Assembly (NCBI GenBank): GCA_038318485.1
Contig: JBBQCH010000001.1
Span: 3,434-67,433 of the forward strand
Source of the DNA: Geobacterales bacterium
GTDB lineage: Bacteria; Desulfobacterota; Desulfuromonadia; Geobacterales; Pseudopelobacteraceae
Reading direction: 5' to 3'
DNA: 64,000 bases
This document shows positions 12,286 to 40,184 of this stretch, piece after piece. A model generated the notes under the pieces. The model did not search any database. It was not told the origin of the DNA and saw nothing but the letters and a program-made list of their open reading frames with translations. Every line of letters starts with the position of its first letter. Position 1 is the first letter of the stretch. A program made the translations under genes and the position numbers.

Positions 12286-12461
12286 GAGAAAAAGCCTTTA
12301 CACTGATTGAGGTTATGGTAGTTATGGCTATCATCACAATATTGGCAGGAATGATGATGCCGGCTGTCTGGAAGTTATTGCAAGTAGCAAAATCGCGTCA
12401 GATTAAATTTGACATTGTACCAGTACCAACCATTGTTACTCTTGGAGGATGCCCAACATGA
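12282..12461 (+). CDS. 59-codon prepilin-type N-terminal domain ORF (truncated pseudopilin?)
   Basis: This ORF is below the ORF-track cutoff. It reads MREKAFTLIEVMVVMAIITILAGMMMPAVW..., the class III signal/methylation motif, but with Ala instead of Gly before FTLIE. Its ATG overlaps the pilC-fragment stop (ATGA), and its end overlaps the crcB start. Confidence 0.5.
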   Translation: MREKAFTLIEVMVVMAIITILAGMMMPAVWKLLQVAKSRQIKFDIVPVPTIVTLGGCPT

Positions 12462-12832
12462 AGACGGCCGCAACAATCGCCCTGTTCTGCGCCGGTGGAG
12501 GACTTACCCGCTATTACCTTTCAGGCTGGATTTACAGTCTGCTTGGAAGAGCGTTCCCATATGGCACCCTGGCAGTCAATATCACTGGTGCTTACCTGAT
12601 AGGTTTTATCATGGAGCTGGGCATGCGTAGCACTGTCATTCCCGACTCTCTGCGTATTGGCCTGACAGTAGGTTTTATGGGCGGTTTAACTACCTTTTCG
12701 ACCTTCAGCTATGAAACATTTAAATTATTGGATGAGGGCCAACTGGTTTTTGCTTTTGCAAATATTGCAGTGAGTGTATTGGCCTGCCTATTGTTCACCT
12801 GGCTGGGCATTATCACCGTTCGAGCGTTCTAA
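12458..12832 (+). CDS. crcB: fluoride ion channel CrcB/FluC
   Basis: Contains GGLTRYYLSGW...YGTLAVNITGAYLIGF...GFMGGLTTFSTFSYE. GGAGG lies 9 nt upstream of the ATG at 12458. Confidence 0.85.
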   Translation: MKTAATIALFCAGGGLTRYYLSGWIYSLLGRAFPYGTLAVNITGAYLIGFIMELGMRSTVIPDSLRIGLTVGFMGGLTTFSTFSYETFKLLDEGQLVFAFANIAVSVLACLLFTWLGIITVRAF

Positions 12833-13017: not shown

Positions 13018-13674
13018 TTGCCCGTCCCGGCTTTCTGCTCTTTTCGACCAAAGGCAGTGCAACGCAGCCGTTTCCGCATCAACGGCAGCATCAACGACAA
13101 CCTTCTGATAGGTTTCAAAATCTCGGCGGCAAGGGGATTGCTGGCCTTTATCAGCGTATCACTGATCTTCAGCCTTGCCACCGGCCGTTTTCATCCCGGC
13201 CTGTACGGACAGCCGGGGGCACATCTGGATTACTTGTGGAGCTTTCTGGAAATGGGACTGGTGGGGTGGATTTCGGTTATCATCGGGGGGTGCCCCTTCC
13301 GGCAGTTGATCAAGGCTGGAGAAGGTGATGCTGATGCCGGACTGGTCGTGATCGGAATGTTTATCGGCGGCTCACTGGCCCAGTCTAGTGGGATCGCGGC
13401 AACGGCAGCCGGCGTTTTTCTTTACGGAAAGGTCTCGATCCTGCAGGGCTTCGCACTGATCGCCTCAGCCAGCATTTTTTCCGGCAAAGAAGCACGTAGG
13501 GGCGCATTGCATGCGCCCATTTCCGGTATCCCATCAATCTATCACAAATCCTCACCGGTGGTCGTCATAACCAGCTTGCCATGTTTAACCCCTTTGACGC
13601 CGATCAACTCATATGCAATCTGCTTGATAACTTGCACCGTACCTCTAATAACAAGGACCTCCAAACAGTTATGA
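13018..13674 (+). CDS. YedE/YeeE-like (sulfur/selenium transport family) membrane protein, possibly truncated or decayed
   Basis: [29 protein letters not shown] resembles the GCPxRQ...GEG motif of YedE-family proteins. Only about one half-domain is present. The frame upstream is broken, and the ORF runs about 130 nt into convergent nikR. Confidence 0.4.
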
Positions 13675-14150: not shown

Positions 14151-14834
14151 ATGAAACCAACCCTGCCCCGCGTCCTTCCCTTTGCTGTTTTCATGGCGTT
14201 CATTGGCGTTGGCGAGTTATTGCGCACTCTAATTGAGCACGGTTTCATCGGACTGGATCCAACAGCGCTATATTATATTTATCCTGTAAAAACCGTTGTT
14301 GTCGGCTGTCTGCTTTATAGGTACAGGAAAGTATATAACGAAATAAGCTTTAAAGAACTGTCAACAATACCGACAACCCTGGCAGTTTTTTGTGTGGGTG
14401 TGCTGGTATTCGCACTCTGGATCCAGATGGACTGGACATTGGGAACATCCGCGACGCCAACCGGGTTCAACCCGGCATTATTCACGAACAAGACTGTACA
14501 GATTGTCATGACATTTTTCAGGATTGCCGGAGCGGTACTGGTTGTGCCGCTGATGGAAGAGCTTTTCTGGCGTTCATTCCTGATCCGCTATATCATCGAC
14601 AACAATTTCATTAAAGTTCCGATTGGAACATTCACCTGGGCCTCCTTCCTTCTGACCATCGCATTGTTCGGAGCCGAGCACAACTACATCTACGCCGGTG
14701 TCATGGCTGGAGTCGTGTACAACCTGATTCTCTACAAAACCCGTAGCCTGACCCAGTGCGTACTGGCCCACGCCGTCACCAACCTGGCCCTTGCTATATA
14801 TGTAATTACAACAGGTAAGTGGCAATTTTGGTAA
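14151..14834 (+). CDS. CPBP/CAAX-type intramembrane protease, PEP-CTERM-locus type
   Basis: Polytopic protein with the MEELFWRSF (EExxxR) and FGAEH...LAHAVTNLAL motifs. Its neighbourhood matches the CAAX prenyl protease-related family described for exosortase loci. Confidence 0.75.
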   Translation: MKPTLPRVLPFAVFMAFIGVGELLRTLIEHGFIGLDPTALYYIYPVKTVVVGCLLYRYRKVYNEISFKELSTIPTTLAVFCVGVLVFALWIQMDWTLGTSATPTGFNPALFTNKTVQIVMTFFRIAGAVLVVPLMEELFWRSFLIRYIIDNNFIKVPIGTFTWASFLLTIALFGAEHNYIYAGVMAGVVYNLILYKTRSLTQCVLAHAVTNLALAIYVITTGKWQFW

Positions 14835-15015
14835 AAATGAATGAAATTTTATCAAAATAATGTCGGCCATTTGATGATTTTACCGCAGTATCAGCAAGTT
14901 GGCTTATACATACAGATTGACTTTTAAAGTAATTTGTGGTGTTACACTTAAACAGTATGACGAGTTGAGCTCGGTCATCCATATACATTTGATATCCAGG
15001 CCTCTGGAGGAACCA

Positions 15016-15690
15016 ATGTTTGAATTTAAAAAGTTATCACATAACGACCCGTTACTTGAAGAAGTCTACAAACTGCGCTACAAGGTCTATTGTGATGAGT
15101 GGGGATTTGAGCGACCTGAGGATCACCCCGGAGGAATCGAGCGGGATGAGTTCGACGCACATTCGGTCCATTTTGCTGCGATAAGAAAAGAGGACCAAAA
15201 ACTGATTGGAACTACACGAATAATTTTACAATCCGAGTCAGGTTTCCCAATTGAAGAACATTGTTGCATAAACGAAGATATTTTGAAATCCGACAAAGCG
15301 CTCTGGGGTGAAATTTCACGTTTGGCGGTTTCCAAGGAATTTCGTAAAAGAGCTGGCGACGATTCCATTTACAAGCATGAGGATCCGCAAACTAACAATG
15401 TAAACAATCCTTTTAAGGAAAAGCGAAAGAATGAAAACCAGATAGTTATCGGTTTATACCGCTGCATTTATCATGAAAGCCTGGAGAGAGGACTGACCCA
15501 TCTCTACGCAGTCATGGCCAAAGGTCTTTTTCTTTTGCTAAACAGAATTGGTATTTGCTTTATTCAGGTTGGACCAGGAATTGAGTATCACGGATTAAGG
15601 ACACCCTACATTTGCTGTATTCAGGAAATTATGGATAACTTTTCCAGGATCAATAACAATCTTTACCAATGCTTCGTCGAAAAGGATTAA
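15016..15690 (+). CDS. PEP-CTERM/exosortase-associated acyltransferase (N-acyl amino acid synthase-like, LuxI-related fold), copy 1
   Basis: GGAGGA lies 7 nt upstream of the ATG. Motifs are VYKLRYKVYCDEWGFE...DEFDAHSVHFAA...EISRLAVSKEFRKRA. Confidence 0.75.
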   Translation: MFEFKKLSHNDPLLEEVYKLRYKVYCDEWGFERPEDHPGGIERDEFDAHSVHFAAIRKEDQKLIGTTRIILQSESGFPIEEHCCINEDILKSDKALWGEISRLAVSKEFRKRAGDDSIYKHEDPQTNNVNNPFKEKRKNENQIVIGLYRCIYHESLERGLTHLYAVMAKGLFLLLNRIGICFIQVGPGIEYHGLRTPYICCIQEIMDNFSRINNNLYQCFVEKD

Positions 15691-15788
15691 AAACTCAAAA
15701 AACAGTATATTCACCACCAACTACCCAAATGAATAGCGAAGAAAGGCGGTTCTGAGGGATTTTGGGGTCCCAATAAAAAAAAGTATAA

Positions 15789-15823
15789 AATCACTTGATT
15801 CCAGATACACTTCAGTATATAAA
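15789..15823 (+). promoter_or_regulatory. candidate promoter with palindromic operator (AATCAcTTGATT overlapping -35 TTGATT; TATATAAA -10 region)
   Basis: TTGATT, a 17-nt spacer, then TATAAA. The same palindrome type and the same TATATAAA recur upstream of the second riboswitch copy at 40185-40225. Confidence 0.4.
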
Positions 15824-15851
15824 GGCCGCTATTAAACATAAAATGATAGTC

Positions 15852-15965
15852 GAGAATACTAAACCATTCGTAAGGATGGGACGGAAAGCCTACGGGTCTT
15901 AACGAGACAGCCGGGTCGCCGAAATATCTAAACAGATATAAGGCACCCGGTTTTTGCGTTTTCTG
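15852..15965 (+). promoter_or_regulatory. GEMM-I-type cyclic-dinucleotide riboswitch with intrinsic terminator (copy A)
   Basis: AAACCAUUC-GUAA-GGAUGGGACGGAAAGCCUACGGGUCU...AGACAGCCGGGUCGCCGA aligns closely to the Vc2 c-di-GMP-I aptamer. It has a GNRA-capped P1a, a P1b hairpin and a P1 stem (AGAAUA/UAUCU). The terminator CCGGGUCGCC/GGCACCCGG plus a U-tract shares its 5' arm with the aptamer. Confidence 0.8.
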
Positions 15966-16034
15966 AATGGCAATCAAGCCAACGGAAAAGTGCAAAACAA
16001 TTTGTCTTACAAAAGAAAGACGGAGGTAATCGTT

Positions 16035-16832
16035 ATGTCCAAAACGATGATGAATTTGGAGCGCAGAACGCCAGTCGTGAGTAATCTTGAAATGCAGGAC
16101 AGCTTTAATAGCAGGTATGCTGTAATTACTGCCGACACACTAGCACTGCAGGAACAGGCCTATAAATTGCGCTACCAGGTTTACTGCAAAGAAAGAAACT
16201 TCGAAAACCCGGATGCCCACCCACTGGAACAGGAGATAGATGAGTTTGATGCCCGCTCCGTCCATTCCGTTATCATTGATCGTCCCACTCGAGCAGTAAC
16301 CGCAACTGTAAGATTGATTCTGCCGAATCCGGATGGCTTTGAAAAAAGCTTTCCGATTCAAGGAGTCTGCAGTCACCCGATGCTTCGTAGCCATAAGCTC
16401 TTACATTCAGCACGATCAGCCGAAATTTCACGGTTTGCAGTTTCAAAGGAATTCAGCCGCAGGGCAACTGACAGTCACCAGTCCCGACAACGCATTGATC
16501 CTCGCAGCGAAAATCAGGCATCCATGCCGAACATCACACTGGGACTGATGAATGGTATCGTACGGATGAGCGTAGAGCATGGAGTTTCCGAGTGGTTTGC
16601 GGTCATGGAACCCACACTGTTACGCCTGTTGGCTCGCTTCGGCATCTATTTTTCACCCATCGGACCAATGGTTGACTATCACGGCATGCGCCAACCGTGT
16701 TACTCCAATATGCATAAACTGCTGGACAGAGTCCATAAAGAACGCATAGATGTTTGGGAGATCATTACTGATAACGGAAGACTGCTGGACGGTGAAGATC
16801 ATCAGTATCCTTCACTACGCTTTATCAATTAG
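16035..16832 (+). CDS. PEP-CTERM/exosortase-associated acyltransferase (N-acyl amino acid synthase-like), copy 2
   Basis: GGAGG lies upstream of the ATG at 16035. Motifs are AYKLRYQVYCKERNFE...DEFDARSVHSVI...EISRFAVSKEFSRRA, and it is a paralog of copy 1. Confidence 0.75.
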   Translation: MSKTMMNLERRTPVVSNLEMQDSFNSRYAVITADTLALQEQAYKLRYQVYCKERNFENPDAHPLEQEIDEFDARSVHSVIIDRPTRAVTATVRLILPNPDGFEKSFPIQGVCSHPMLRSHKLLHSARSAEISRFAVSKEFSRRATDSHQSRQRIDPRSENQASMPNITLGLMNGIVRMSVEHGVSEWFAVMEPTLLRLLARFGIYFSPIGPMVDYHGMRQPCYSNMHKLLDRVHKERIDVWEIITDNGRLLDGEDHQYPSLRFIN

Positions 16833-16841
16833 CAGTATTAA

Positions 16842-16870
16842 GGGGGCTCTAAATAAGACTTGGAGCCCCC
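16842..16870 (+). terminator. GC-rich hairpin after acyltransferase copy 2 (weak U-tract)
   Basis: GGGGGCUC-N13-GAGCCCCC starts 10 nt after the stop codon. The downstream sequence is only moderately T-rich. Confidence 0.4.
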
Positions 16871-17072
16871 CTGCACTTTATCATTTCACTATCAGAAGCA
16901 TGCACCTTGCCATCTTAAAAACCATATAATTTGTTTTATAGCACTCCCTGCTAAATCAATTAATGAGCTAAATTTTTTTCTAATTTCCCGGCAAGTTCAG
17001 CTTGTAACACATTTATTACTGAACTGTTCACTATTCAGTTTAACGTACTTACTTTTATGGTATAGTAATCAA

Positions 17073-18200
17073 ATGTTTTACGTTGCCCTACGCATTCTAA
17101 TGTACGACAAGGTACGCTCACTGATAACACTTCTGGGCGTTGTATTCGCTGTCGGCCTTATTTTCAACCAGCTTGGGATATTTCTCGGCTTGATGGAAAC
17201 TTCATCTGTAATAATTGACCATACTCCAGGAGACATCTGGGTTACATCCAAAAACAGTAAAAACTTCGATTTTTCCCAACCTTTTCCAGAATATATTTAC
17301 AATCACACCATCGCTGATCCTGACATCCTGTCAGCAGAAAAGCTGATTGTCGCCTGGGGGATAATACGTCAAAAAGAAGGGGGAACTGAACAGGTTGAAG
17401 TTGTTGGATTCAATCCCGATACCGGTATAGGGGGACCATGGGACATGATGGAAGGTGATCCCCGCCGATTAAAAAACGGAAATTTTGCCATAGTAGATGA
17501 ATCTGCAATGAAACGACTTGGAAAAATTCAGGTTGGAGATCATCGGGATGTTCTTTCGCATCGACTCGAGATAATAGGCCTTTCAAGGGGTGTAAAATCT
17601 TTTACAACTGCTCCGATTTTGTTTACCTCATTTGAGCTTGCCCAGCGATTGGTAACTTACATGGGTTCCGACAGTACAGTTTTCGTAGTTGCAAAGGTCA
17701 AGCAAGGTGCATCGCCAGAGCAGGTAATAACAAGGCTTAGAAGTCGCCTAAAAGGTGTCGACGTTTTCTCAGCAGCGGATTTTAGCATGAAAACTCGCAA
17801 ATACTGGGCCATAGAAACGGGTGTAGGCTTTTCATTCATGCTGACAATTGTGATAAGTTTTCTGGTCGGAATGCTGATTGTCGGTCAAACAATCTACAAT
17901 TCTACGATGGAGCATATCAAAGAGTTCGGCACCCTGAAAGCTTTGGGAGCCAGCAATATGGATATCTACAAAATCATTTTCTCCCAGGCAATGATCAACG
18001 CCATGCTGGGATACATAGTGAGCCTTATTATTACAATCGCCACCGTTAAAGTGTATGAACTTGGCGGTATGGTCATGGTAGTGCGCGGATGGGTTAATTT
18101 TCTGGTGCTCGGCCTTACACTTCTCATGTGCCTTTCTGCAGCGTTTGTATCAGTCCGCAGAATCAAGAAGATTGATCCAGCCATTCTGTTCCGGGGGTAG
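17073..18200 (+). CDS. ABC exporter permease, FtsX/DevC-like
   Basis: It has an N-terminal TM helix, a large periplasmic domain, and a C-terminal FtsX-type 3-TM bundle (FGTLKALGASNMDIYKIIFSQAMINAMLGY). The start was chosen at MFYVALRILMYDK. Confidence 0.75.
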   Translation: MFYVALRILMYDKVRSLITLLGVVFAVGLIFNQLGIFLGLMETSSVIIDHTPGDIWVTSKNSKNFDFSQPFPEYIYNHTIADPDILSAEKLIVAWGIIRQKEGGTEQVEVVGFNPDTGIGGPWDMMEGDPRRLKNGNFAIVDESAMKRLGKIQVGDHRDVLSHRLEIIGLSRGVKSFTTAPILFTSFELAQRLVTYMGSDSTVFVVAKVKQGASPEQVITRLRSRLKGVDVFSAADFSMKTRKYWAIETGVGFSFMLTIVISFLVGMLIVGQTIYNSTMEHIKEFGTLKALGASNMDIYKIIFSQAMINAMLGYIVSLIITIATVKVYELGGMVMVVRGWVNFLVLGLTLLMCLSAAFVSVRRIKKIDPAILFRG

Positions 18201-18201
18201 T

Positions 18202-18894
18202 GTGGCAGAACCGATTATCACAAAAGAACTGTCCAAAATCTATCGAGAAGGGAAGATTGAAGTAACCGCCCTGGAGCAAGTGGACGTAACGCTAAAGGAA
18301 GGTGAAGTCGTTGGCCTTTTTGGTCCATCTGGTAGCGGCAAAACAACTCTTCTTTCAATCCTTGGATGCATCCTTCGCTCCACTTCCGGTTCACTCACCA
18401 TCTATGGCAATGAAGTCGGCGGACTTGAAGAATCTCAGCTCCCCAGCATTCGGAAACGTTACATTTCATTCATATTCCAGGGATTCAATCTTTTTCCCGC
18501 TCTCACCGCTTATGAGAATGTCATTTTGGGATTAAAGATGAAGGGAATCATCGGTAAGGATGCGGACCAACGAACTAAATACATAATGAATGAAGTTGGC
18601 CTGGCTGATCGGCTCAACTTCCTTCCCAGAGACTTGAGTGGCGGACAACGGCAGAGGGTGGCCGTAGCCAGAGCATTGGCAGCAGACTCACCTATAGTGC
18701 TGGCTGATGAACCTACCGGCAACCTGGATCACAGCAACGGCAGAAAGGTTATGGAGTTATTGAGAGAAATGGCTTCTGCCCAGCGCCGCTGCGTGGTTGT
18801 CGCTACCCATGACAACCGCATCGAAGACCTTTTCGACCGGGTTCTTTACATGGAAGACGGAAGAATACGCAGAGAAAAACGGGGTAACTCATGA
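18202..18894 (+). CDS. ABC exporter ATPase (MacB/LolD/DevA-like)
   Basis: Walker A GPSGSGKTTLL, signature LSGGQRQRVAVARAL and Walker B IVLADEPTGNLD are present. The GTG start follows the permease stop. Confidence 0.9.
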   Translation: MAEPIITKELSKIYREGKIEVTALEQVDVTLKEGEVVGLFGPSGSGKTTLLSILGCILRSTSGSLTIYGNEVGGLEESQLPSIRKRYISFIFQGFNLFPALTAYENVILGLKMKGIIGKDADQRTKYIMNEVGLADRLNFLPRDLSGGQRQRVAVARALAADSPIVLADEPTGNLDHSNGRKVMELLREMASAQRRCVVVATHDNRIEDLFDRVLYMEDGRIRREKRGNS

Positions 18895-19919
18895 AAAACA
18901 GCCGTTTCGGAATAATAATCATTGGGGCCCTGATTATTCTGGCTGCACTACTTGCCGTAGTAGGTCCTAAGCTTGTCGAAAAACAGTCTGCAAATCCCCC
19001 CACCACTACTGCCTTCACTAACAAGCAAGCAGGCATAACCGCCAGAGGCGTCGTTGAAGCAGCTGAGGATGTAGAGTTGAGCAGCCAGGTCAAAGGAACA
19101 ATTGCAAGCGTTATGGTTGAAGAAGGGGCTGAAATACACAAGGGACAGCTACTGCTTGAATTTGAAAAGTCTAAGGCTGAGGCACAACTCCGACAGGCAC
19201 GATCAGCCGTTGCCGCCGCCGAGTCCCGCTATCGTGAGGCTGCCAAAGGTTACCGTCCTGAGGACATAACCATTGTAAACAGCGGCAAAAACCGTGCTAA
19301 AGCGATCTATGACCAGGCCAGGGATGAATACGAACGACAGCAGCGCCTGTTTACAAAAGGAGCTGCTACACAGGTAGACCTTAATCGATCAGCGGAGCGC
19401 CTTAAGATTTCCGAAGACGACCTTTCCGGAGCAGAAGCAAACCTTGAAAAGCACCGTTACGGAGTAAGGAGCGAAGAAAAGGATCGGGCTCGTGCCGACC
19501 GCGACAGGGCCCGCTCTGAAGTACAGCTTGCAGAAAGCGTACTAAGTGACTATCAGATTCATGCCCCAATTTCCGGCATTGTCACCGAGCGTTACAAAGA
19601 TGGTGGAGAGGGAACTGATATCGGGACCCCCCTGTTTCGCCTCGTAAATCCAAAAACGATCAGAATCAGGGCCGAATTGGAGGAGACTGATATGGGCCGT
19701 GTGACAGAAGGACAGCTGGTTGAAGTTACCGTTGAAGCTTTCCATGACAAAATATTTCATGGCAAAGTAAGTAAAGTATTCCCGGTCGTGCACAAAAAAA
19801 CCCAGAAGAGCTTCGACCCAATGGCCTCATTCGACATCAATACTCAGAAAATCCAAATACAGCTTGATGATTATCACGGTCTCAAAAACGGAATGACAAC
19901 AACTGTGCGATTCAAGTGA
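18891..19919 (+). CDS. HlyD-family periplasmic adaptor (membrane fusion protein, DevB-like)
   Basis: It has an N-terminal TM helix, a coiled-coil hairpin (AEAQLRQARSAVAAAESRYREA...) and a beta-barrel C-terminus. It overlaps the ATPase stop by 4 nt. Confidence 0.85.
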   Translation: MKNSRFGIIIIGALIILAALLAVVGPKLVEKQSANPPTTTAFTNKQAGITARGVVEAAEDVELSSQVKGTIASVMVEEGAEIHKGQLLLEFEKSKAEAQLRQARSAVAAAESRYREAAKGYRPEDITIVNSGKNRAKAIYDQARDEYERQQRLFTKGAATQVDLNRSAERLKISEDDLSGAEANLEKHRYGVRSEEKDRARADRDRARSEVQLAESVLSDYQIHAPISGIVTERYKDGGEGTDIGTPLFRLVNPKTIRIRAELEETDMGRVTEGQLVEVTVEAFHDKIFHGKVSKVFPVVHKKTQKSFDPMASFDINTQKIQIQLDDYHGLKNGMTTTVRFK

Positions 19920-19924
19920 CATTT

Positions 19925-21631
19925 ATGCGGATACTACCTCTATCACTTCTGCTGGTAATGACATTAACCATCCAGCCAGCCTCAGGCAGAACACTCTCAC
20001 TCGAAGAGTGCCTTCAGATGGCCCTGAAACAGAACAGCGGCCTTAAATCATCTAAGGCAGCCACCTTGTCCGCTGCAGAAGACGTGACCATGGCTAAGAC
20101 GGCTTTATTGCCATCGTTAAAACTTAAAGGTTTTTACACAATATCTGACAAATCCAACAACCTGACAATTGACTCCAATGCCTTTGCGACTGGACTTCCG
20201 CGCCAGAAAACAGACCTTTCTCTGGGGGATAAAGACTCTTACGGCTTTAACCTCACTCTGCGTCAACCTCTCTTTACCGGTGGAAACCTCACAAACGCAA
20301 GACAAGTGACCAAACATGAATATGCCGCCGCCACTCATGCATATTCACGACAACGCACCTTAATGTTATTTCAAGTCAAAAAGACTTTTAATGAAGCATT
20401 GATCGCTTCAAACCGTATACAGACAGCAGAAATGGCAGTAAAGGCTGCTGAAGAAAGACTGGAAGTGACCGTTGCTCGCCTGGAAGAAGGTTATGCCGAC
20501 CGCGAAGAAAAGCTGCGGCGCGAGGCGGATCTTGCCATGGCAAATACCCGCCTGATTAAAGTCAGGAATCGCTCGTTTCTGGTGCTGGCCAAACTACGTC
20601 AACTGACTGGATCCGGACCGGGCGAAGAGATTGAAGTCATTGGCCATCCCGCAAAACTGACCCTGACAGGTAGCCTGGATGATCTGACAAAGGGTACTTT
20701 CGACCGCCGTGAAGACATAAAAAGTGCAACTGAAAAAAGTATTGCCGCCGAGTCCGGTGTACTTGTAGCCCGCAGTGGATATCTCCCGCAAGTTTTTCTG
20801 GAAGGCAATTATCTCCGCCAGAAGGAAACCAGCATTGCCCACCCTGAACTATGGTCGCTGACATTGCAGGCCGAATGGTCACTGTTCGAATGGGGACGCA
20901 CTTCTTCCGCCGTGCGCCAGGCAGTTGCCCGCCAAAGTCAGCTGGATCTTGCCAGGGAAGAGCTAGAACGAAGTGCCAAACTGGAGACAGAGGAAGTATG
21001 GCGAGAGGTAGTCGAGCAACAAAGCCAGGTCATTGCCCACGAAAAGATTGTAAGGGCAGAGGAAGCCGCCTTTGTCAAAACCATTGACAGATACCTTGAA
21101 GGAGCGGCACGCTTGGATGAGGTCATATCCGCAGAATCGGCTCTATGGGAAGCTTATGATGTCTATTGCCAAAGCGCTGCCAACCTAAGCAGTGCCTTTG
21201 CTGCCCTGGAAGCTGCGACATCGGCACATCTGGATCAGTGGACCAGTACCGAAGATTTATATCGCCCTGACTTTAAGTTCTATGCCAGCCGCATAAAAAG
21301 CCGTACCTTTACAACTCCTGTTAAAACTGAGAAACAAGTAACCGTTACAGCCCAGCCAGAAGCCAAACAAACAGCGGTGACAACAGAGCATGCCGCCCTC
21401 TACTTGCAATTGGGTGCTTTTTTATCCAGAAAGAGCGCTGAGGATCTACTGGCGTTATTAACTCCAAGGTTTGGCGAAAAACATACTGAGATACTAAAAG
21501 AAGGTAAGCTCTATAAACCGGTTATCTTCCCTTATTCAGACAGTAAAGCTGCCGAAAAAGCAGCTGCTGATCTGGGAATCAAAGAGTATCTGATAAGGAG
21601 TGAGCATGGACCGCGACAAGTTTCTCCATGA
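19925..21631 (+). CDS. TolC-family outer membrane channel with C-terminal SPOR domain
   Basis: A signal peptide and two TolC repeats (LSLEECLQMALKQNSGLK...) are followed by a roughly 75-aa C-terminus, LYLQLGAFLSRKSAEDLL...GKLYKPVIFPYSDSKAAEKAAADL, that matches the SPOR pattern. Confidence 0.8.
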   Translation: MRILPLSLLLVMTLTIQPASGRTLSLEECLQMALKQNSGLKSSKAATLSAAEDVTMAKTALLPSLKLKGFYTISDKSNNLTIDSNAFATGLPRQKTDLSLGDKDSYGFNLTLRQPLFTGGNLTNARQVTKHEYAAATHAYSRQRTLMLFQVKKTFNEALIASNRIQTAEMAVKAAEERLEVTVARLEEGYADREEKLRREADLAMANTRLIKVRNRSFLVLAKLRQLTGSGPGEEIEVIGHPAKLTLTGSLDDLTKGTFDRREDIKSATEKSIAAESGVLVARSGYLPQVFLEGNYLRQKETSIAHPELWSLTLQAEWSLFEWGRTSSAVRQAVARQSQLDLAREELERSAKLETEEVWREVVEQQSQVIAHEKIVRAEEAAFVKTIDRYLEGAARLDEVISAESALWEAYDVYCQSAANLSSAFAALEAATSAHLDQWTSTEDLYRPDFKFYASRIKSRTFTTPVKTEKQVTVTAQPEAKQTAVTTEHAALYLQLGAFLSRKSAEDLLALLTPRFGEKHTEILKEGKLYKPVIFPYSDSKAAEKAAADLGIKEYLIRSEHGPRQVSP

Positions 21632-22469
21632 TGCATTCTCACGTAACTTAGGCCTGCTGAGTGAATCAGACCAGCACCGCCTGCTTGATGCTCGGATTGC
21701 CGTTGCAGGAGCTGGAGGCGTTGGTGGATTGCATCTCCTGACCCTGGCCCGGATCGGTGTCGGAAAATTTAACATCGCTGACTTCGACACCTTCGATGCG
21801 GTCAACATCAATCGCCAGTACGGTGCCTTCATCAGTACGCTTGGCAAACCTAAAGCCGAGGTAATGAGTGACATGGTGCGGGATATCAACCCGTTTGCCG
21901 ATGTCCGGCTTTTTCCGCAGGGAGTCACGCTGCAGAACCTGGATGATTTTCTGGAAGGTGTTGATATTTATGTTGATGGGATTGATTTTTTTGAGATTGA
22001 TATTCGACGGGCAATTTTCAACCGCTGTCGAGAAAAGGGGATCATTGCAATAACTTCAGCTCCGCTGGGCTTTGGCGCTACATTGCAGGTATTTACACCG
22101 CAAGGCATGTCATTTGATGATTACTTTGCCATACAAGATGGCATGGGGCAGCCGGAAAAAGTGGCTGCCTTTGCAGCCGGCCTGGCACCCCACCCTTACC
22201 ACATCAAGTATCTGGATCTGTCCAAGGTAGATATGGCAAACAAGCGTGGACCAGCCTTGGCGCTGGCCTGCACACAAGCCTCCACCCTGATAGCAACGGA
22301 GACGATCAAGATTCTAACCGGCAAGGGCACTGTACGACCGGCTCCCGCCTACCTCCAGATCGACCTGCTTCGAAACAAGTACACCCGGGGCTATCTTTGG
22401 CTGGGTGGAAAAAACCCGCTTCAAGCTCTGAAGCGCTGGATCATACTGAAAAAAGTGAAGGCAGCCTGA
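21606..22469 (+). CDS. ThiF/MoeB/HesA-family E1-like adenylyltransferase
   Basis: IAVAGAGGVGGLHLLTLARIGVGKFNIADFDTFDAVNINRQ is a Rossmann/ThiF signature. AAGGAG lies 5 nt upstream of the ATG. Confidence 0.8.
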   Translation: MDRDKFLHDAFSRNLGLLSESDQHRLLDARIAVAGAGGVGGLHLLTLARIGVGKFNIADFDTFDAVNINRQYGAFISTLGKPKAEVMSDMVRDINPFADVRLFPQGVTLQNLDDFLEGVDIYVDGIDFFEIDIRRAIFNRCREKGIIAITSAPLGFGATLQVFTPQGMSFDDYFAIQDGMGQPEKVAAFAAGLAPHPYHIKYLDLSKVDMANKRGPALALACTQASTLIATETIKILTGKGTVRPAPAYLQIDLLRNKYTRGYLWLGGKNPLQALKRWIILKKVKAA

Positions 22470-22522
22470 ATATGAAATTGGATTTGTTTATTGATATGTA
22501 ACACATTCATTAGAGGGATATC

Positions 22523-23305
22523 ATGACCCAGGACTCTGACCTTCAAAAAAATCAATTCATCAAACTTGTCGGCCTCTCCTCCTTTCTTGAACAGCAGGGC
22601 AGCCTGGATGAATGCCTGGACGAGATTGTCGCCAAATCGGCCAGTATCCTTAACATAAAGAACTGTTCAATAATGCTGTTCCGCGAAGATGAACTTGGTG
22701 ACGGTGTCAGCCTGCGAATGTTCTCCAAGTATGGAGAATTCCCTGTATCAGCTTACAACGAGGCTGTTAAAGTCAACAAGGGCATTGCCGGTCGTGTTGC
22801 AGCATCTGCCCGCCCCCTGTTAGTTCAGGACATCCAGAAGTCAGAATATTTGCCGCTCGCCCGTACACCCGACTCCCCCAGCAAAAGCTTTATCTGTGTT
22901 CCGATCGTGATTGGGGGCAAAGTTATCGGTGTCCTGAATGTCAGCAACCCGATTGACAATCGCAGTTTTGATTACAACGACCTGAATGTATCCGTGTTTG
23001 TTACTCTTTTGATCGGCAGATCAGTACAGGTCATTCAGCTGCAGAATCTCCTTAAATCAAGGTTTGCTCAACTGGCAGTCATGCAGGAAGCAAAGGTGAT
23101 AATGGAGGATAAATTCTCAGTGAATAATTATGACGCAGAAATGATGGTCAAAATGGTCTCCAAATCTTTCTATAAAGAAATGAACAAGGCCGGCTTTACC
23201 AAAAACCATATTATTAACGCGGCAACAGAGATAATCGGACTGCTGCATGAAAGCCTGCAACGTCATGACCAACGGAGCCAACGAGAAACTGAGCGGGAAT
23301 CATAA
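22523..23305 (+). CDS. GAF-domain protein
   Basis: CSIMLFRED...GIAGRVAASARPLLVQDI...FICVPIVIGGKVIGVLNVSN is a typical GAF core. I recognise no output domain. Confidence 0.7.
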   Translation: MTQDSDLQKNQFIKLVGLSSFLEQQGSLDECLDEIVAKSASILNIKNCSIMLFREDELGDGVSLRMFSKYGEFPVSAYNEAVKVNKGIAGRVAASARPLLVQDIQKSEYLPLARTPDSPSKSFICVPIVIGGKVIGVLNVSNPIDNRSFDYNDLNVSVFVTLLIGRSVQVIQLQNLLKSRFAQLAVMQEAKVIMEDKFSVNNYDAEMMVKMVSKSFYKEMNKAGFTKNHIINAATEIIGLLHESLQRHDQRSQRETERES

Positions 23306-23323
23306 GCACCTTAAGGAGTGAGC

Positions 23324-24394
23324 ATGGATGAACGTATTCGTAAAATCATAGAAGCTGGAATCAAAGCTCCTTCTGGCGATAACTGTCAACCATGGAAATT
23401 TCAGGCAGATGAGAACAGAATCAATCTATTCAATGTTCCCGAGAGGGACACCTCGCTTTACAACTACAAGCAACGTGCTTCACTTGTCTCCCACGGCGCC
23501 TGCATAGAAAACATGTTAATTGCCGCAAGAAAATACGGATTCCTGACAGAACTGAGCTACTTCCCGACACCGGACAATCAACAGCATGTAGCAAGACTAA
23601 GTATGTCTGACTCCGAGACCTCAGATGAACCGCTCTTCGCTGCCATCTCAGAAAGAAGCATCAATCGGAAGCCCTACCAAAGCGGAGTGCTCTCTCCAGA
23701 AGCCGCTGACAGCATCTGCCAAGCGGCAACCAATACTGAAGTTCCGGGGTGCTCGCTCAAACTGCTGCTGGGGAAAGAAAAGGAAACTGCTGCCGACATT
23801 GTAGCCCTAAGTGATCGTCTGGTTTTTGAAAACCCGCATCTGCATGGTTTTCTCTTCGATCACATTCGCTGGAATCAGGAAGAAGCAGAGCATACCAGAG
23901 ATGGGTTGGATATCCGCACCCTCGAACTTGCACCCCAGGACAAGGTGCTGTTTCCACTTCTCAAACATTTCGGGCTGGTCAAATTCATCAGCATATTTGG
24001 TGCAACCAGGATGATTGCCGCAAACGCCAGAAAACTGATGTTGTCGGCCTCGGCCGGCGGAATAATCACCATTGCGGATTCCTCAGCAGAAAGCTGGCTC
24101 AATGCCGGACGAATACTGGAAAGGGTCTGGCTGGAGGCGACCAGGCAGGGACTGGCGTTTCATCTGATGACGGGGATTACTTTGATTGTTCAGCGGGTTC
24201 GAGACGGAGAGCAGAATGGGTTTAGCAACAATAACAGTTCACTGGTGAAACAAGCTGATATCTTATTGACGCAAGCTTCAGGAACTGAACTTCCAGTTGC
24301 ACTACTTTTCAGAATCGGTGTTTGCAACCAACCGACTGCCCGTTCGTTGCGCTTTGGGGTGGATGCTGTGACTGCAATTGGTAAACAAGTTTAA
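23324..24394 (+). CDS. tandem nitroreductase-fold FMN oxidoreductase (Acg-like)
   Basis: IIEAGIKAPSGDNCQPWKF is followed by a second nitroreductase-like half, about 355 aa in total. Confidence 0.7.
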   Translation: MDERIRKIIEAGIKAPSGDNCQPWKFQADENRINLFNVPERDTSLYNYKQRASLVSHGACIENMLIAARKYGFLTELSYFPTPDNQQHVARLSMSDSETSDEPLFAAISERSINRKPYQSGVLSPEAADSICQAATNTEVPGCSLKLLLGKEKETAADIVALSDRLVFENPHLHGFLFDHIRWNQEEAEHTRDGLDIRTLELAPQDKVLFPLLKHFGLVKFISIFGATRMIAANARKLMLSASAGGIITIADSSAESWLNAGRILERVWLEATRQGLAFHLMTGITLIVQRVRDGEQNGFSNNNSSLVKQADILLTQASGTELPVALLFRIGVCNQPTARSLRFGVDAVTAIGKQV

Positions 24395-32842: not shown

Positions 32843-32940
32843 GCGTTAGGCGTTTAGGCGGGAAAGCGATTAAAGGATAAGGGTAAATTGCTTCATCGCT
32901 TCATCGCTTCATCGCTTCTCCTCTTCTCCACATTCCCGCC
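32843..32940. repeat. octamer-periodic element, copy R1 (between the xrtA-epsI stop and the tviB start)
   Basis: GCGTTAG|GCGTTTAG|GCGGGAAA|GCGATTAA|AGGATAAG|GGTAAATT|GCTTCATC x3|GCTTCTCC|TCTTCTCC|ACATTCCC|GCC. The ends are self-complementary (GGCGGGAA / TTCCCGCC). Confidence 0.75.
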
Positions 32941-34523
32941 TATCTCGGTAAGAATTCCCTGAAGACTTTTTCAAAGTCGCGGATAAAAGCCTCCCCGGTA
33001 GCCGTAGCCAGGGCTTCATCATTTTCAAATGGCACCGAAATACGGATAAAGGCTTCATCCCGACGCTGATAAAGAATCGAGTTTTTTATTTCCGATAACT
33101 TGAGAGAATACTCATCAGAAATTGTTTTGTCCATCATTTGAAACCAATACAGGAACAGCTCCTTGCTGGAATCTTTCTGATATACAGCACGCACGATATT
33201 CAGGCTTCCACCTGGGACAGGAAGTGAATCCCGTCTAGTCGAGACCTCATTCCAGCCACTGCCCGGCAGGCAATGCTTTGGCGAATGAATACCGCCACTT
33301 CCCTTTGCACCGCTATGATACCCGACATAGAGGTTTACTACAGTACCATCTACGCTCCTGTATTGACGAGAGATGTAATCTGTCGCTTTCAAAACATTTA
33401 GAACATTGGCGCTGAATTGATACTGATCTGACATTTTCCAACCTTCAACCTGTTTGGGAAACTGACTGAAAGGTTTGTTTGTTGGTATGTCCGCGTCAGC
33501 GTGGGTATGTATAAACAGTACAACAGCGATCAGCAGGATGTAAGGAACGGCAAAGCGTAATGCGGTTAGGCGGTTAAGCGGTGATACGGTAATACGATTA
33601 TCTGATGATGCGTTCAGGGGGTCATGCGTTGACGCGGAAACATCGCTTTCCCGCTTTTCCTCTTCCCCACATTCACGCTTCCCTGCATCCCCGCCTTTCC
33701 CCTTCACCAATGCTCCCACTGTCACCAAAAGCACCATGGCAAGTACAAACACCATCATGCCTGCAAACTCGTGAAAAAAACCTTCCGCAGCCTTTGCGCC
33801 CCACCACTGGGCCAGAATACCGGTCACAATAACCCGCAGGGCATTGGTAGCAATCGCTATCGGTACTGCCGATGCAATGATGATCCAGCGTCGAAAATTA
33901 GTTGTCTGCAAAATGAAAGCGTAGGCCACCGCCAGCGCCAGAAGTGAAATCAGCGAGCGGATACCACTGCAGGCATCCGCCACCTCCAGGGTTATGGTTG
34001 GAAAGATGATGATGTTTCCCTCGCGCATGACGACAATCCCCGTCAATTGCAGGAATGCCACTGATACTTTAGTGACAAACATTTTCAGAGGAAAGGCAAC
34101 CATATCGTAGATGATATAGGGAATCGGTACCATAAAGATCAGAAAACCAAGTGGAAGCGCCATTCCCTTTAGAATCTCCCGACCGAACCAGTACAGCACC
34201 AATCCTGCCAGCAGAACTATCAGGGAAGAGCGCATGGTAAAATACTCCGTGGCAAGCCATCCTAACAGAAGTTGCAGAACCCCAAGTATGATCACCACCA
34301 ACCCCAGACTATCGGGCTTTATCAGTCGGGTTTTCAACTCCGGCCAGCGCTGCCAGAAAAAGTAGCCGGCAATGACCGGCACCAGGAAACCATGCGAATA
34401 GTTTTCATCCTTGTACCAATCCATGACCATATCAGGCACGATCAGGTAATAGATACCAACCAGGAGCAGGATGCTTGCCAAAAGTTGCAGGCGGTAATGC
34501 TTCAGTGCCTCTTGAAATGTCAT
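32940..34523 (-). CDS. xrtA: exosortase A (XrtA/EpsH) fused to a C-terminal EpsI-family domain
   Basis: The N-terminus is DENYSHGFLVP. Catalytic-type motifs DACSGIRSL, NALRV and FHEFAGMM are present. A low-complexity linker precedes the EpsI-like FPKQVEGWKMSD...YVGYHSGAKGSGGIHSPKHCLPGSGW. Confidence 0.85.
   Translation of the reverse strand: MTFQEALKHYRLQLLASILLLVGIYYLIVPDMVMDWYKDENYSHGFLVPVIAGYFFWQRWPELKTRLIKPDSLGLVVIILGVLQLLLGWLATEYFTMRSSLIVLLAGLVLYWFGREILKGMALPLGFLIFMVPIPYIIYDMVAFPLKMFVTKVSVAFLQLTGIVVMREGNIIIFPTITLEVADACSGIRSLISLLALAVAYAFILQTTNFRRWIIIASAVPIAIATNALRVIVTGILAQWWGAKAAEGFFHEFAGMMVFVLAMVLLVTVGALVKGKGGDAGKRECGEEEKRESDVSASTHDPLNASSDNRITVSPLNRLTALRFAVPYILLIAVVLFIHTHADADIPTNKPFSQFPKQVEGWKMSDQYQFSANVLNVLKATDYISRQYRSVDGTVVNLYVGYHSGAKGSGGIHSPKHCLPGSGWNEVSTRRDSLPVPGGSLNIVRAVYQKDSSKELFLYWFQMMDKTISDEYSLKLSEIKNSILYQRRDEAFIRISVPFENDEALATATGEAFIRDFEKVFREFLPR
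33555..33705. repeat. octamer-periodic element, copy R2 (inside the xrtA-epsI ORF, encoding the linker)
   Basis: Nineteen consecutive 8-nt units run from GCGGTTAG|GCGGTTAA|GCGGTGAT|ACGGTAAT|... to ...|ATCGCTTT|CCCGCTTT|TCCTCTTC|CCCACATT|.... It is colinear with R1 (TATCTGATgATGCGTT versus TATCTGATaATGCGTT, and CTCTTCcCCACATTC versus CTCTTCtCCACATTC). Confidence 0.75.
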
Positions 34524-35616: not shown

Positions 35617-35840
35617 CCCTGTTTGCCACCATCAATTCTGTCCCGGTCTCGGCAATGGATTATTAATGGCAGACCATACATTTTTTTTTATATTTAAGCA
35701 ATCTCTGCATTATATCTCCAACCTTTGCTAATAATCCGCAAGATGATATTATTAAACAATTCAGCGGTAGTTGGCGGCAGTTAAAAACCTTTATGATTGC
35801 CACCATAAATGCAGCAGAGGGCCTGAACGGGGACGGTACA

Positions 35841-36530
35841 ATGGAAACTATCAATCGAAAATTATTCACTGAACAGATGTTACGAAAAATTCCATTTTTT
35901 GCAGACCTGACAGAGTTGGAACTGCTGGACGTGGAAGCTCATATCACAATGAAACGGATTGGCAAAAATGAGGTGGTACTTTTTGAGGAAGATACGGTTA
36001 ACTTCATATATTTTGTCTACTCAGGCAAAGTCAGGGTCGTACAGACCAGTGAGCAGGGACGGGAACGAATCCTGAAGATTCACAAGAAAAACGAATATTT
36101 TGGTGAAATGGCCATCCTCGACGGCAAGACCTCTCCGGCCACGGTCATTGCCATGGAAGACTCGGAAATCGGCCTTCTGGGAAGAGACGACTTCAATCGA
36201 ATACGGGCTAATAATGACAGAATCTGCCAGCAGACCATAGCTGTTCTTTGCAGAAGACTGCGCGAAGCGTGGATGACGATCAGGACCATGAGTTTTGCCA
36301 CAGCTGAAGAGAAGATCATGGCGGCATTGGATCAACTAAAGAGGGCAAATGGTGTGCGGGATCAGCGGGGAGTAATCATCACCATGAGACTGACGCATAG
36401 CCAGATTGCCAGCTATGCGTCAGTCTCCAGGGAAACGGTGACAAGAACTTTGAATAAACTTGTAAAAGAGGGTTCAATCGAAATTCTGGACAATAAATCC
36501 ATACTTGTTAAAAAGGATTTTACAATTTAG
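35841..36530 (+). CDS. Crp/Fnr-family transcriptional regulator
   Basis: The cNMP-binding domain (FFADLTELELLDV...YFGEMAILDGKTSPATV) is followed by a C-terminal HTH (THSQIASYASVSRETVTRTLNKL). Confidence 0.8.
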   Translation: METINRKLFTEQMLRKIPFFADLTELELLDVEAHITMKRIGKNEVVLFEEDTVNFIYFVYSGKVRVVQTSEQGRERILKIHKKNEYFGEMAILDGKTSPATVIAMEDSEIGLLGRDDFNRIRANNDRICQQTIAVLCRRLREAWMTIRTMSFATAEEKIMAALDQLKRANGVRDQRGVIITMRLTHSQIASYASVSRETVTRTLNKLVKEGSIEILDNKSILVKKDFTI

Positions 36531-39847: not shown

Positions 39848-40039
39848 GCTAAACCTCCTTGGTTTTGTTGCTCCTAGAAAAACAGGACACCGTGGAGGTG
39901 AGGCGGTTCTTCGGTAACCCAGCCATCCTGTCGTCACAGGACCTGTAGCTTTGTGCCCCCCGGTTGCCCGAGGTTTACCCTTTTCGGAAGCAGTTATATA
40001 TGCGTGGTACCTGTTAAATCAGAAAATTGTGTTTCAACT

Positions 40040-40168
40040 CTAACAAAAAAAGCCGGATCGTCAATACATCAGGGGTTGTTATCCTTGATATTTCGGCGAC
40101 CCGGCTGTCTCTGTAAGACCCTTGGGCTTTCCGTCCCATCCTCACGGATGGTTTAGTATTATCGTATA
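40040..40168 (-). promoter_or_regulatory. GEMM-I-type cyclic-dinucleotide riboswitch with intrinsic terminator (copy B)
   Basis: The reverse complement matches copy A at about 68 of 75 aptamer positions. Differences fall in the GNRA loop (GUGA versus GUAA), one stem pair (C-G versus U-G) and loops. The terminator is GCCGGGUCG/CGAUCCGGC followed by U7. Confidence 0.8.
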
Positions 40169-40184
40169 TCGTTGTTTAATCGAG

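Follow-up and report, generated by a model that had tools for sequence, protein, structure and literature searches.

A GEMM-Ib-like riboswitch with a predicted ON mechanism precedes a PEP-CTERM-associated acyltransferase gene in a Geobacterales bacterium

Results

The window analyzed here is a stretch of 64,000 nucleotides (nt) from a Geobacterales bacterium of the Pseudopelobacteraceae (contig JBBQCH010000001.1), and the subject of this report is an RNA element within it, a GEMM-Ib-like aptamer of the GEMM-I (c-di-GMP-I) family at 15845-15928 (+), in the 5' leader of an acyltransferase gene that we call acyl2. The leader also holds an intrinsic terminator (15909-15962, +) and ends with the ribosome-binding site GGAGG (16022-16026) and the ATG start codon (16035-16037) of acyl2, which together occupy 16022-16037 (+) in the sequence. 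The product of acyl2 (16035-16832, +) is a PEP-CTERM/exosortase-associated acyltransferase of the N-acyl amino acid synthase family; it scored 266.7 bits against TIGR03694 (cutoff 111.95) and matched Acetyltransf_5, FeeM and, weakly, Autoind_synth in Pfam, and a search of PDB chains returned only marginal matches to N-acylhomoserine lactone (AHL) synthases (E ~0.03). Upstream, and outside the control of the riboswitch, are genes for a PEP-CTERM CAAX-protease-related protein (14151-14834, +; TIGR03008, 258.3 bits) and a paralogous acyltransferase, acyl1 (14899-15690, +). The latter passes TIGR03694 as well (194 bits), in agreement with an earlier note on this DNA, made from the sequence without database searches, that had described the gene behind the riboswitch as the second of two PEP-CTERM-associated acyltransferases.

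Aptamer identity and fold

A scan of the whole window with Rfam at the gathering threshold returned three matches, every one from the c-di-GMP-I clan. The match in the acyl2 leader, at 15848-15923 (+), was to RF01051 (c-di-GMP-I, GEMM-I). It scored 52.3 bits (E = 2.3e-7; gathering score 35) and spanned the full model (1-87) with a single non-canonical pair flagged. The earlier note had named this kind of covariance-model scan as the check on its identification of a GEMM-I-type cyclic-dinucleotide riboswitch, and the identification held; the sequence it quoted was located at 15853-15929. Our own covariance model R1, built from the three GEMM-I copies of the window, placed the aptamer at 15845-15926 with 101.6 bits. 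The sister model RF03167 (c-di-GMP-I-GGC) was rejected as the family of this element: it gave 53.7 bits in a local scan, under its gathering score of 59, and the position equivalent to A47 of the Vibrio cholerae Vc2 aptamer holds A, not G.

Among related copies the fold is strongly maintained, with 93.7% of paired cells in their alignment retaining pairing versus 28-51% in slid controls, and with changes on both sides at 11 pairs, values reached by 0 of 500 shuffles. The P1a hairpin (15864-15879, +; CCAUUC-GUAA-GGAUGG), recovered by both the Rfam alignment and folding, has a GUAA loop of the GNRA type, and five of its six pairs covary. The conserved junction GGGACGGAAAGCC is present, and the P1b helix follows at 15887-15917 (+), its 3' strand (15911-15917) being held in common with the terminator. 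These three elements are as they had been described. The P1 stem that had been proposed with them (AGA-AUA/UAUCU) was mis-registered, and we rejected it because it would pair A15858, an unpaired ligand-contact base, and because it conflicts with the RF03167 model alignment, in which P1 consists of C15851-G15921 and G15852-C15920. An outer extension of P1, pairing GAUA (15845-15848) with UAUC (15925-15928), is possible. An open reading frame (ORF) for 94 amino acids on the opposite strand (15711-15995, -) overlaps the riboswitch; it is probably non-coding and was treated as such, since the conserved RNA and terminator account for the overlapping stretch.

Terminator and promoter

The terminator consists of a hairpin at 15909-15952 followed by the U-tract UUUUUGCGUUUU (15951-15962). 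Its apical helix is AUAUCU/AGAUAU (15924-15929 with 15934-15939), and its basal helix is AGCCGGGU-GCC/GGCACCCGGUU, in which the 3' strand of the aptamer, 15909-15920, pairs with 15942-15952. Both pairings had been recognized from the sequence, and folding supports them: the hairpin has a predicted energy of -23.2 kcal/mol (z = -4.3), a stability matched by none of 200 shuffled sequences. A plain promoter and terminator scan of 15400-16200 reported nothing; the terminator escaped it because a bulge and two internal loops interrupt the stem and break the plain stem-and-small-loop pattern that the scan seeks. An equivalent hairpin and U-run were found in all nine loci that were folded, with differing 3'-arm sequences, and also in the 16 copies published for Geobacter metallireducens.

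The 5' arm of the terminator (15909-15920) comprises the 3' strand of P1b, C15919, which is the predicted ligand-pairing C, and the first nucleotide of P1, and C15919 pairs with G15943 in the terminator fold. Since the two structures draw on the same strand, the aptamer and terminator folds are mutually exclusive, a prediction that supports the ON switch suggested in the earlier note. The minimum-energy fold of the full leader contains the terminator (-40.1 kcal/mol, versus -15.9 kcal/mol for the aptamer secondary structure alone), and termination is therefore the predicted default, with co-transcriptional ligand binding expected to permit read-through. The mechanism indicated by these folds is a transcriptional ON switch acting through an intrinsic terminator, and the element is almost certainly a functional GEMM-I-family ON riboswitch for acyl2. 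Translational control as the main mode was rejected, as the ribosome-binding site lies ~70 nt past the terminator and outside the switching helices.

A putative sigma-70-type promoter was read by eye at 15795-15823 (+), about 20-25 nt upstream of the aptamer, where TTGATT (15795-15800) and TATAAA (15818-15823) are separated by a 17-nt spacer. The scan would have missed it because the tool demands T at position 6 of the -10 element, and TATAAA ends in A. By eye, similar hexamers (TTGAxx or TTGCCA, then TAxxxx, 16-17 nt apart) stand just 5' of the aptamer in 8 of 9 loci, and none were found by the same inspection in the ninth, L002. From these hexamers we infer that 15795-15823 is the promoter of the leader.

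Conservation of the pairing with acyl2

Species-representative genomes were scanned with an alignment of acyl2 homologues, returning 80 loci, to which our own covariance model was applied. The aptamer was found 120-300 nt 5' of the acyl2 homologue in all eight Geobacter/Geobacteraceae loci, including those of G. hydrogenophilus and G. argillaceus, and in 0 of the 72 loci from other lineages (Alpha- and Gammaproteobacteria, Acidobacteriota and others). Seven further metagenome contigs, with homologues 49-93% identical to acyl2, carried it 110-200 nt upstream (7/7). RF01051 itself scored above its gathering score in all 15 of these Geobacteraceae-type loci, 110-300 nt upstream of the acyl2 homologue, and in 0 of 11 sampled loci of other lineages. 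The best acyl2 homologue in the species-representative genomes is only 55% identical, and the position of the riboswitch is kept across homologues whose proteins are 44-55% identical.

The riboswitch always precedes the acyl2-type paralogue, while the acyl1-type gene occurs nearby in tandem, divergent or convergent orientation. Because the exporter genes described below follow in only some of these loci, acyl2 appears to be the invariant target of the riboswitch. At one locus, L087, a gene for a PilZ-domain protein (1444-1869), a candidate receptor for cyclic di-GMP (c-di-GMP), is found just 5' of the cluster of CAAX-protease-related gene, acyl1, riboswitch and acyl2.

Bases that contact the ligand

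The Rfam consensus AAaGGCAAAcc aligns with AAUACUAAACC, which places A15858 (+) at the position equivalent to G20 of Vc2 and A14 of Gs1761, the nucleotide that reads the first ligand base. This A is kept in 15 of 15 acyl2-associated orthologous copies. By its position in the Rfam alignment A15885 (+) is equivalent to Vc2 A47, which in Vc2 structures stacks between the two ligand bases, and the alignments identify C15919 (+) as the equivalent of Vc2 C92 and of C75 in pilM, the predicted Watson-Crick partner of the ligand G. The element thus carries the sequence signature of GEMM-Ib, A15858 at the G20 equivalent together with C15919 as the C92 equivalent. The earlier note had stressed a near-identity to Vc2, which is sound for the fold, the junction and the A47 and C92 equivalents, but which masks the replacement of G20 by A15858.

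Genes downstream of the riboswitch

The genes that follow acyl2 encode a predicted export system and several further proteins. A MacB/DevC-like permease (16860-18200, +), a DevA-like ATPase (18145-18894, +) and an HlyD-type adaptor (18891-19919, +) are succeeded by an outer-membrane factor of the TolC family whose C-terminal part is a SPOR (peptidoglycan-binding) domain (19916-21631, +). Scores against the heterocyst-glycolipid-type exporter DevBCA were all under cutoff (DevC 134 versus 290, DevA 225.7 versus 295.8, DevB 88.3 versus 129); membership in that group was rejected, and we describe the system as a MacB-type, DevBCA-like tripartite ABC exporter. It follows acyl2 here as well as at L046, L081, L082, L083 and L087; the order of permease, ATPase and adaptor is the same in L046, L081, L083 and L087, L082 shows permease and ATPase before the locus ends, and the TolC-SPOR fusion recurs in L081, L083 and L087.

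Three probable distal operon genes complete the series: a ThiF-like protein (PRK08223; 21600-22469, +), a GAF-domain protein (22523-23305, +) and an Acg/Rv1355c-type flavin mononucleotide (FMN) oxidoreductase, which is nitroreductase-like (23318-24394, +). All genes after acyl2 through 24394 share its strand, and neighbors overlap or are separated by short gaps; the chance that 16035-24394 forms one operon, of eight genes headed by acyl2, seems somewhat better than even.

Two of these gene types are widespread companions of the acyltransferase family. Among the 72 non-Geobacter loci, ThiF-like genes accompany TIGR03694 acyltransferases in 38 and Acg/Rv1355c-type nitroreductase-like genes in 33. 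The ThiF-like and Acg-like proteins of the window align one after the other along PRK14851 and PRK14852, two long NCBIfam models, which indicates that these domains also occur fused. Given how widely the two accompany the acyltransferase, its product may be further modified.

Surrounding locus

The rest of the window is, judging from its genes, a PEP-CTERM exopolysaccharide locus. It encodes an exosortase-EpsI fusion (32940-34523), PrsK, PrsR, a PepA-like PEP-CTERM protein, sugar-nucleotide enzymes and glycosyltransferases. The association of TIGR03694 proteins with the exosortase/PEP-CTERM system is therefore seen here, with exosortase-EpsI, PrsK, PrsR, the PepA-like protein and the TIGR03008 protein all in the window. 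The G+C content of 8001-60000 is 41-50%, versus 52-55% at the left end of the window and 51.5% in its last 4 kb; this low G+C echoes the "atypically low G+C" reported for Gmet_2037 and Gmet_2038 of G. metallireducens, and the region may be an island or a set of horizontally exchanged surface-polysaccharide genes. Farther upstream there is a crcB fluoride-exporter gene (12449-12832, +), beside which the Rfam scan of the window detected no fluoride riboswitch at the gathering threshold. The next ORF (13018-13674, +) matches the YedE selenium-transporter family only C-terminally (positions 199-334 of 337) and may be a truncated or split YedE-type gene.

The other two GEMM-I riboswitches of the window are complete and lie in tandem at 39907-40170 (-), ahead of a gene (~36896-39846, -) for a protein of ~980 amino acids with Big_7 immunoglobulin (Ig)-like repeats. 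The first aptamer (40092-40167, -) has A at the G20 position, as in aptamers for the 3',3' form of cyclic GMP-AMP (cGAMP), and its own strong terminator (-28.7 kcal/mol with z = -5.3). In the second (39909-39988, -) the bases are G20, A47 and C92, as expected of the c-di-GMP type; its best Rfam match is RF03167, and its candidate terminator is weaker than that of the first. If specificity follows position 20, the tandem would be a two-input gate requiring cGAMP and c-di-GMP, a pairing absent among the heterotypic tandems described in the consulted passages of a tandem-riboswitch review (PMC9481103). This heterotypic arrangement of an A20 and then a G20 aptamer may be a more interesting lead than the acyl2 riboswitch. 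A Crp/FNR-type cyclic-nucleotide-binding regulator is encoded directly downstream of, and convergent with, the Ig-repeat gene (35793-36530, +), and the locus appears to be a meeting point for several nucleotide second messengers.

Discussion

We consider it likely, with a probability of roughly 0.7, that the element, in the 5' leader of the acyl2 operon, senses cGAMP as a riboswitch of the GEMM-Ib type known from Geobacter. Transcription would probably start at the promoter that precedes the aptamer by ~20-25 nt. Should the aptamer capture no ligand while the polymerase covers 15924-15952, the segment 15909-15920, including C15919, would pair with 15942-15952, and 15924-15929 would pair with 15934-15939, so that the transcript would end at the U-tract. 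A bound dinucleotide would leave the switching strand held in P1 and P1b, the terminator would not form, and read-through would allow expression of acyl2 and here also of the genes for the exporter, TolC-SPOR, ThiF-like, GAF and nitroreductase-like proteins. The predicted output is a lipid of the acylated amino-acid type, made and exported in response to cGAMP within the PEP-CTERM/exopolysaccharide surface program.

Experimental work on close relatives of this RNA is consistent with such a mechanism. The ON mechanism of the G. metallireducens pilM cGAMP riboswitch has been dissected experimentally, and its terminator sequesters the ligand-pairing C75 (PMC9262584). In G. sulfurreducens, RNA sequencing (RNA-seq) showed that every transcript downstream of a GEMM-Ib element drops in level once gacA, the gene for the cGAMP synthase, is deleted (PMC6456294).

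Several observations weigh against parts of this account. The putative promoter was read by eye in a region where the promoter scan reported none, and the extent of the operon is read solely from gene spacing. The exporter follows acyl2 in the window and five other loci, and not in the other related loci. Rfam has no separate GEMM-Ib model, so that the subclass call comes from one base and overall similarity, and A at position 20 is insufficient for cGAMP selectivity, as bispecific A20 aptamers demonstrate (PMC6140456).

The last point bears on which dinucleotide is sensed. The replacement of G20 by A defines the cGAMP-binding GEMM-Ib riboswitches of Geobacter, and A14 of Gs1761 (PDB 4yaz) reads the adenine of 3',3'-cGAMP (PMC6140456). 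Many Geobacter GEMM-Ib copies are strongly selective for cGAMP, the pgcA copy by ~1200-fold (PMC6456294). Given the A at the G20 equivalent, and the close kinship of the RNA to characterized Geobacter cGAMP riboswitches, the main ligand of the acyl2 riboswitch is probably 3',3'-cGAMP rather than c-di-GMP. The call goes no further because a protonated adenine can let A20 aptamers accept c-di-GMP as well, and bispecific RNAs occur naturally within GEMM-Ib; under some conditions the affinity of Gs1761 for cGAMP is only ~3-fold above that for c-di-GMP (PMC6140456). A c-di-GMP riboswitch, or a bispecific aptamer that accepts both dinucleotides, would also fit the best Rfam family of the element, which is c-di-GMP-I, and the G20-type copy at 39909-39988 indicates that c-di-GMP signaling is clearly in use at this locus. 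That separate G20 copy also suggests that the two types are kept functionally apart, however, and the retention of A20 in every acyl2-associated copy, with the close resemblance of the RNA to the G. metallireducens and G. sulfurreducens family that responds to cGAMP in vitro and in vivo, makes sensing of c-di-GMP an unlikely alternative, though one to be taken seriously.

Two further explanations of the element appear very improbable. Because the default fold terminates, short transcripts should accumulate, and the terminated leader of ~110-130 nt might then act in trans as a short regulatory RNA, a reading in keeping with the label "predicted regulatory short RNAs" used by Aklujkar et al., 2009 (PMC2700814). 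The element nonetheless stands directly 5' of the acyl2 gene in every case, and in the same orientation; conservation falls on the aptamer and the switching strand and not on a candidate seed region; and in G. sulfurreducens the effects that RNA-seq reveals on downstream genes are in cis (PMC6456294). A trans role would in any case add to cis control and not replace it. Slightly more improbable still is a decayed copy that no longer regulates anything, an idea suggested by the multicopy nature of the family in Geobacter, with 16 copies in G. metallireducens and three in the window, but at odds with the full-length model match with just one non-canonical pair flagged, with a terminator and ligand-contact positions that are all intact, and with a location conserved across homologues of 44-55% protein identity.

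The RNA itself belongs to a thoroughly studied Geobacter family, GEMM-Ib, and is nothing new in kind. What modest interest it has comes from its cargo: the conserved target in 15 loci encodes an enzyme of the N-acyl amino acid synthase type, and the exporter stands alongside it here and in five related loci. This cargo points to an unstudied output of cGAMP, namely secreted or outer-membrane acyl-amino-acid lipids in a PEP-CTERM/exopolysaccharide program. The literature searched yielded no experimental work on this acyl2 branch of the cGAMP regulon, and such an output would be directly testable in G. metallireducens through Gmet_2037. More tentatively, and with the odds against it, the cGAMP riboswitch could gate a full make-and-export module in some Geobacteraceae, composed of the synthase, the ThiF-like, GAF and nitroreductase-like proteins as possible modifiers of its product, and the MacB-type pump with its TolC-SPOR partner. 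If so, an intracellular cyclic dinucleotide would directly control the release of an acyl-amino-acid-derived lipid, which might serve as an extracellular surfactant, a matrix component or an intercellular signal while mineral or electrode surfaces are being colonized.

Comparison with known systems

Vc2, the archetype of RF01051, shares its fold, junction, and A47 and C92 bases with the window RNA, and differs in having G20 and selectivity for c-di-GMP where the window RNA has A15858. P1b of the window RNA is also much shorter, a 14-nt stretch of the RF01051 consensus being reduced to 2 nt. As a protein, acyl2 resembles TIGR03694/FeeM-like N-acyl amino acid synthases in passing the TIGR03694 cutoff and in its setting among exosortase, PrsK, PrsR, PepA-like and TIGR03008 genes; beyond Geobacteraceae-type loci this family lacked a GEMM-I leader in all 72 loci examined with our own model and all 11 examined with Rfam.

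The Geobacter GEMM-Ib riboswitches (Gs1761, pgcA and G. metallireducens pilM) are closer in kind. They have the same GEMM-I fold and A at the G20 position as the window copy, and they are transcriptional ON switches whose terminators draw the aptamer 3' strand, with the ligand-pairing C, into their stems, as predicted here. These cGAMP riboswitches were reportedly described by Kellenberger, Nelson and Ren, with their respective coworkers, in 2015. In the cases that have been studied the downstream genes encode cytochromes, pili and lipoproteins, versus an acyltransferase in the window.

The nearest precedent is Gmet_R3013 of G. metallireducens. The earlier note had been aware of no described link between cyclic-dinucleotide riboswitches and this enzyme family, but one was published in 2009: Table S4 of Aklujkar et al., 2009 (PMC2700814) lists Gmet_R3013 5' of Gmet_2037, an "N-acylhomoserine lactone synthetase-related protein", its sequence is given in their Figure S7, and the authors proposed riboswitch control for this conserved RNA. 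The association of riboswitch and acyltransferase is thus not new, and later work added cGAMP sensing for this RNA family. The precedent came up only under the older name "autoinducer synthetase", and in the open-access literature we found no paper connecting the riboswitch with the enzyme under its N-acyl amino acid synthase or exosortase-based name, which is probably why the link was overlooked. The same study aligned 16 aptamer-plus-terminator units of G. metallireducens (Additional file 16; PMC2700814), and seven of these 16 are 75-83% identical to that of the window over the whole unit and 83-90% identical over the aptamer.

Gmet_R3013 has an aptamer-plus-terminator unit 82% identical to that of the window, and A is at position 20 in both. 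Each precedes a gene of the AHL-synthetase-related or N-acyl amino acid synthase type, with a second paralogue beside it, in a low-G+C PEP-CTERM/exopolysaccharide region; the paralogues are described as divergent at the Gmet_R3013 locus and are in tandem in the window. Gmet_R3013 also has a near-identical counterpart at locus L023 of G. hydrogenophilus, where a TIGR03694 homologue of acyl2 follows it, and it is through L023, rather than through the Gmet_2037 protein itself, that we argue for the probable orthology of Gmet_2037 and acyl2. L023 differs from the window in that its acyl2 orthologue stands without the exporter, TolC-SPOR, ThiF-like, GAF and nitroreductase-like genes that follow acyl2 in the window.

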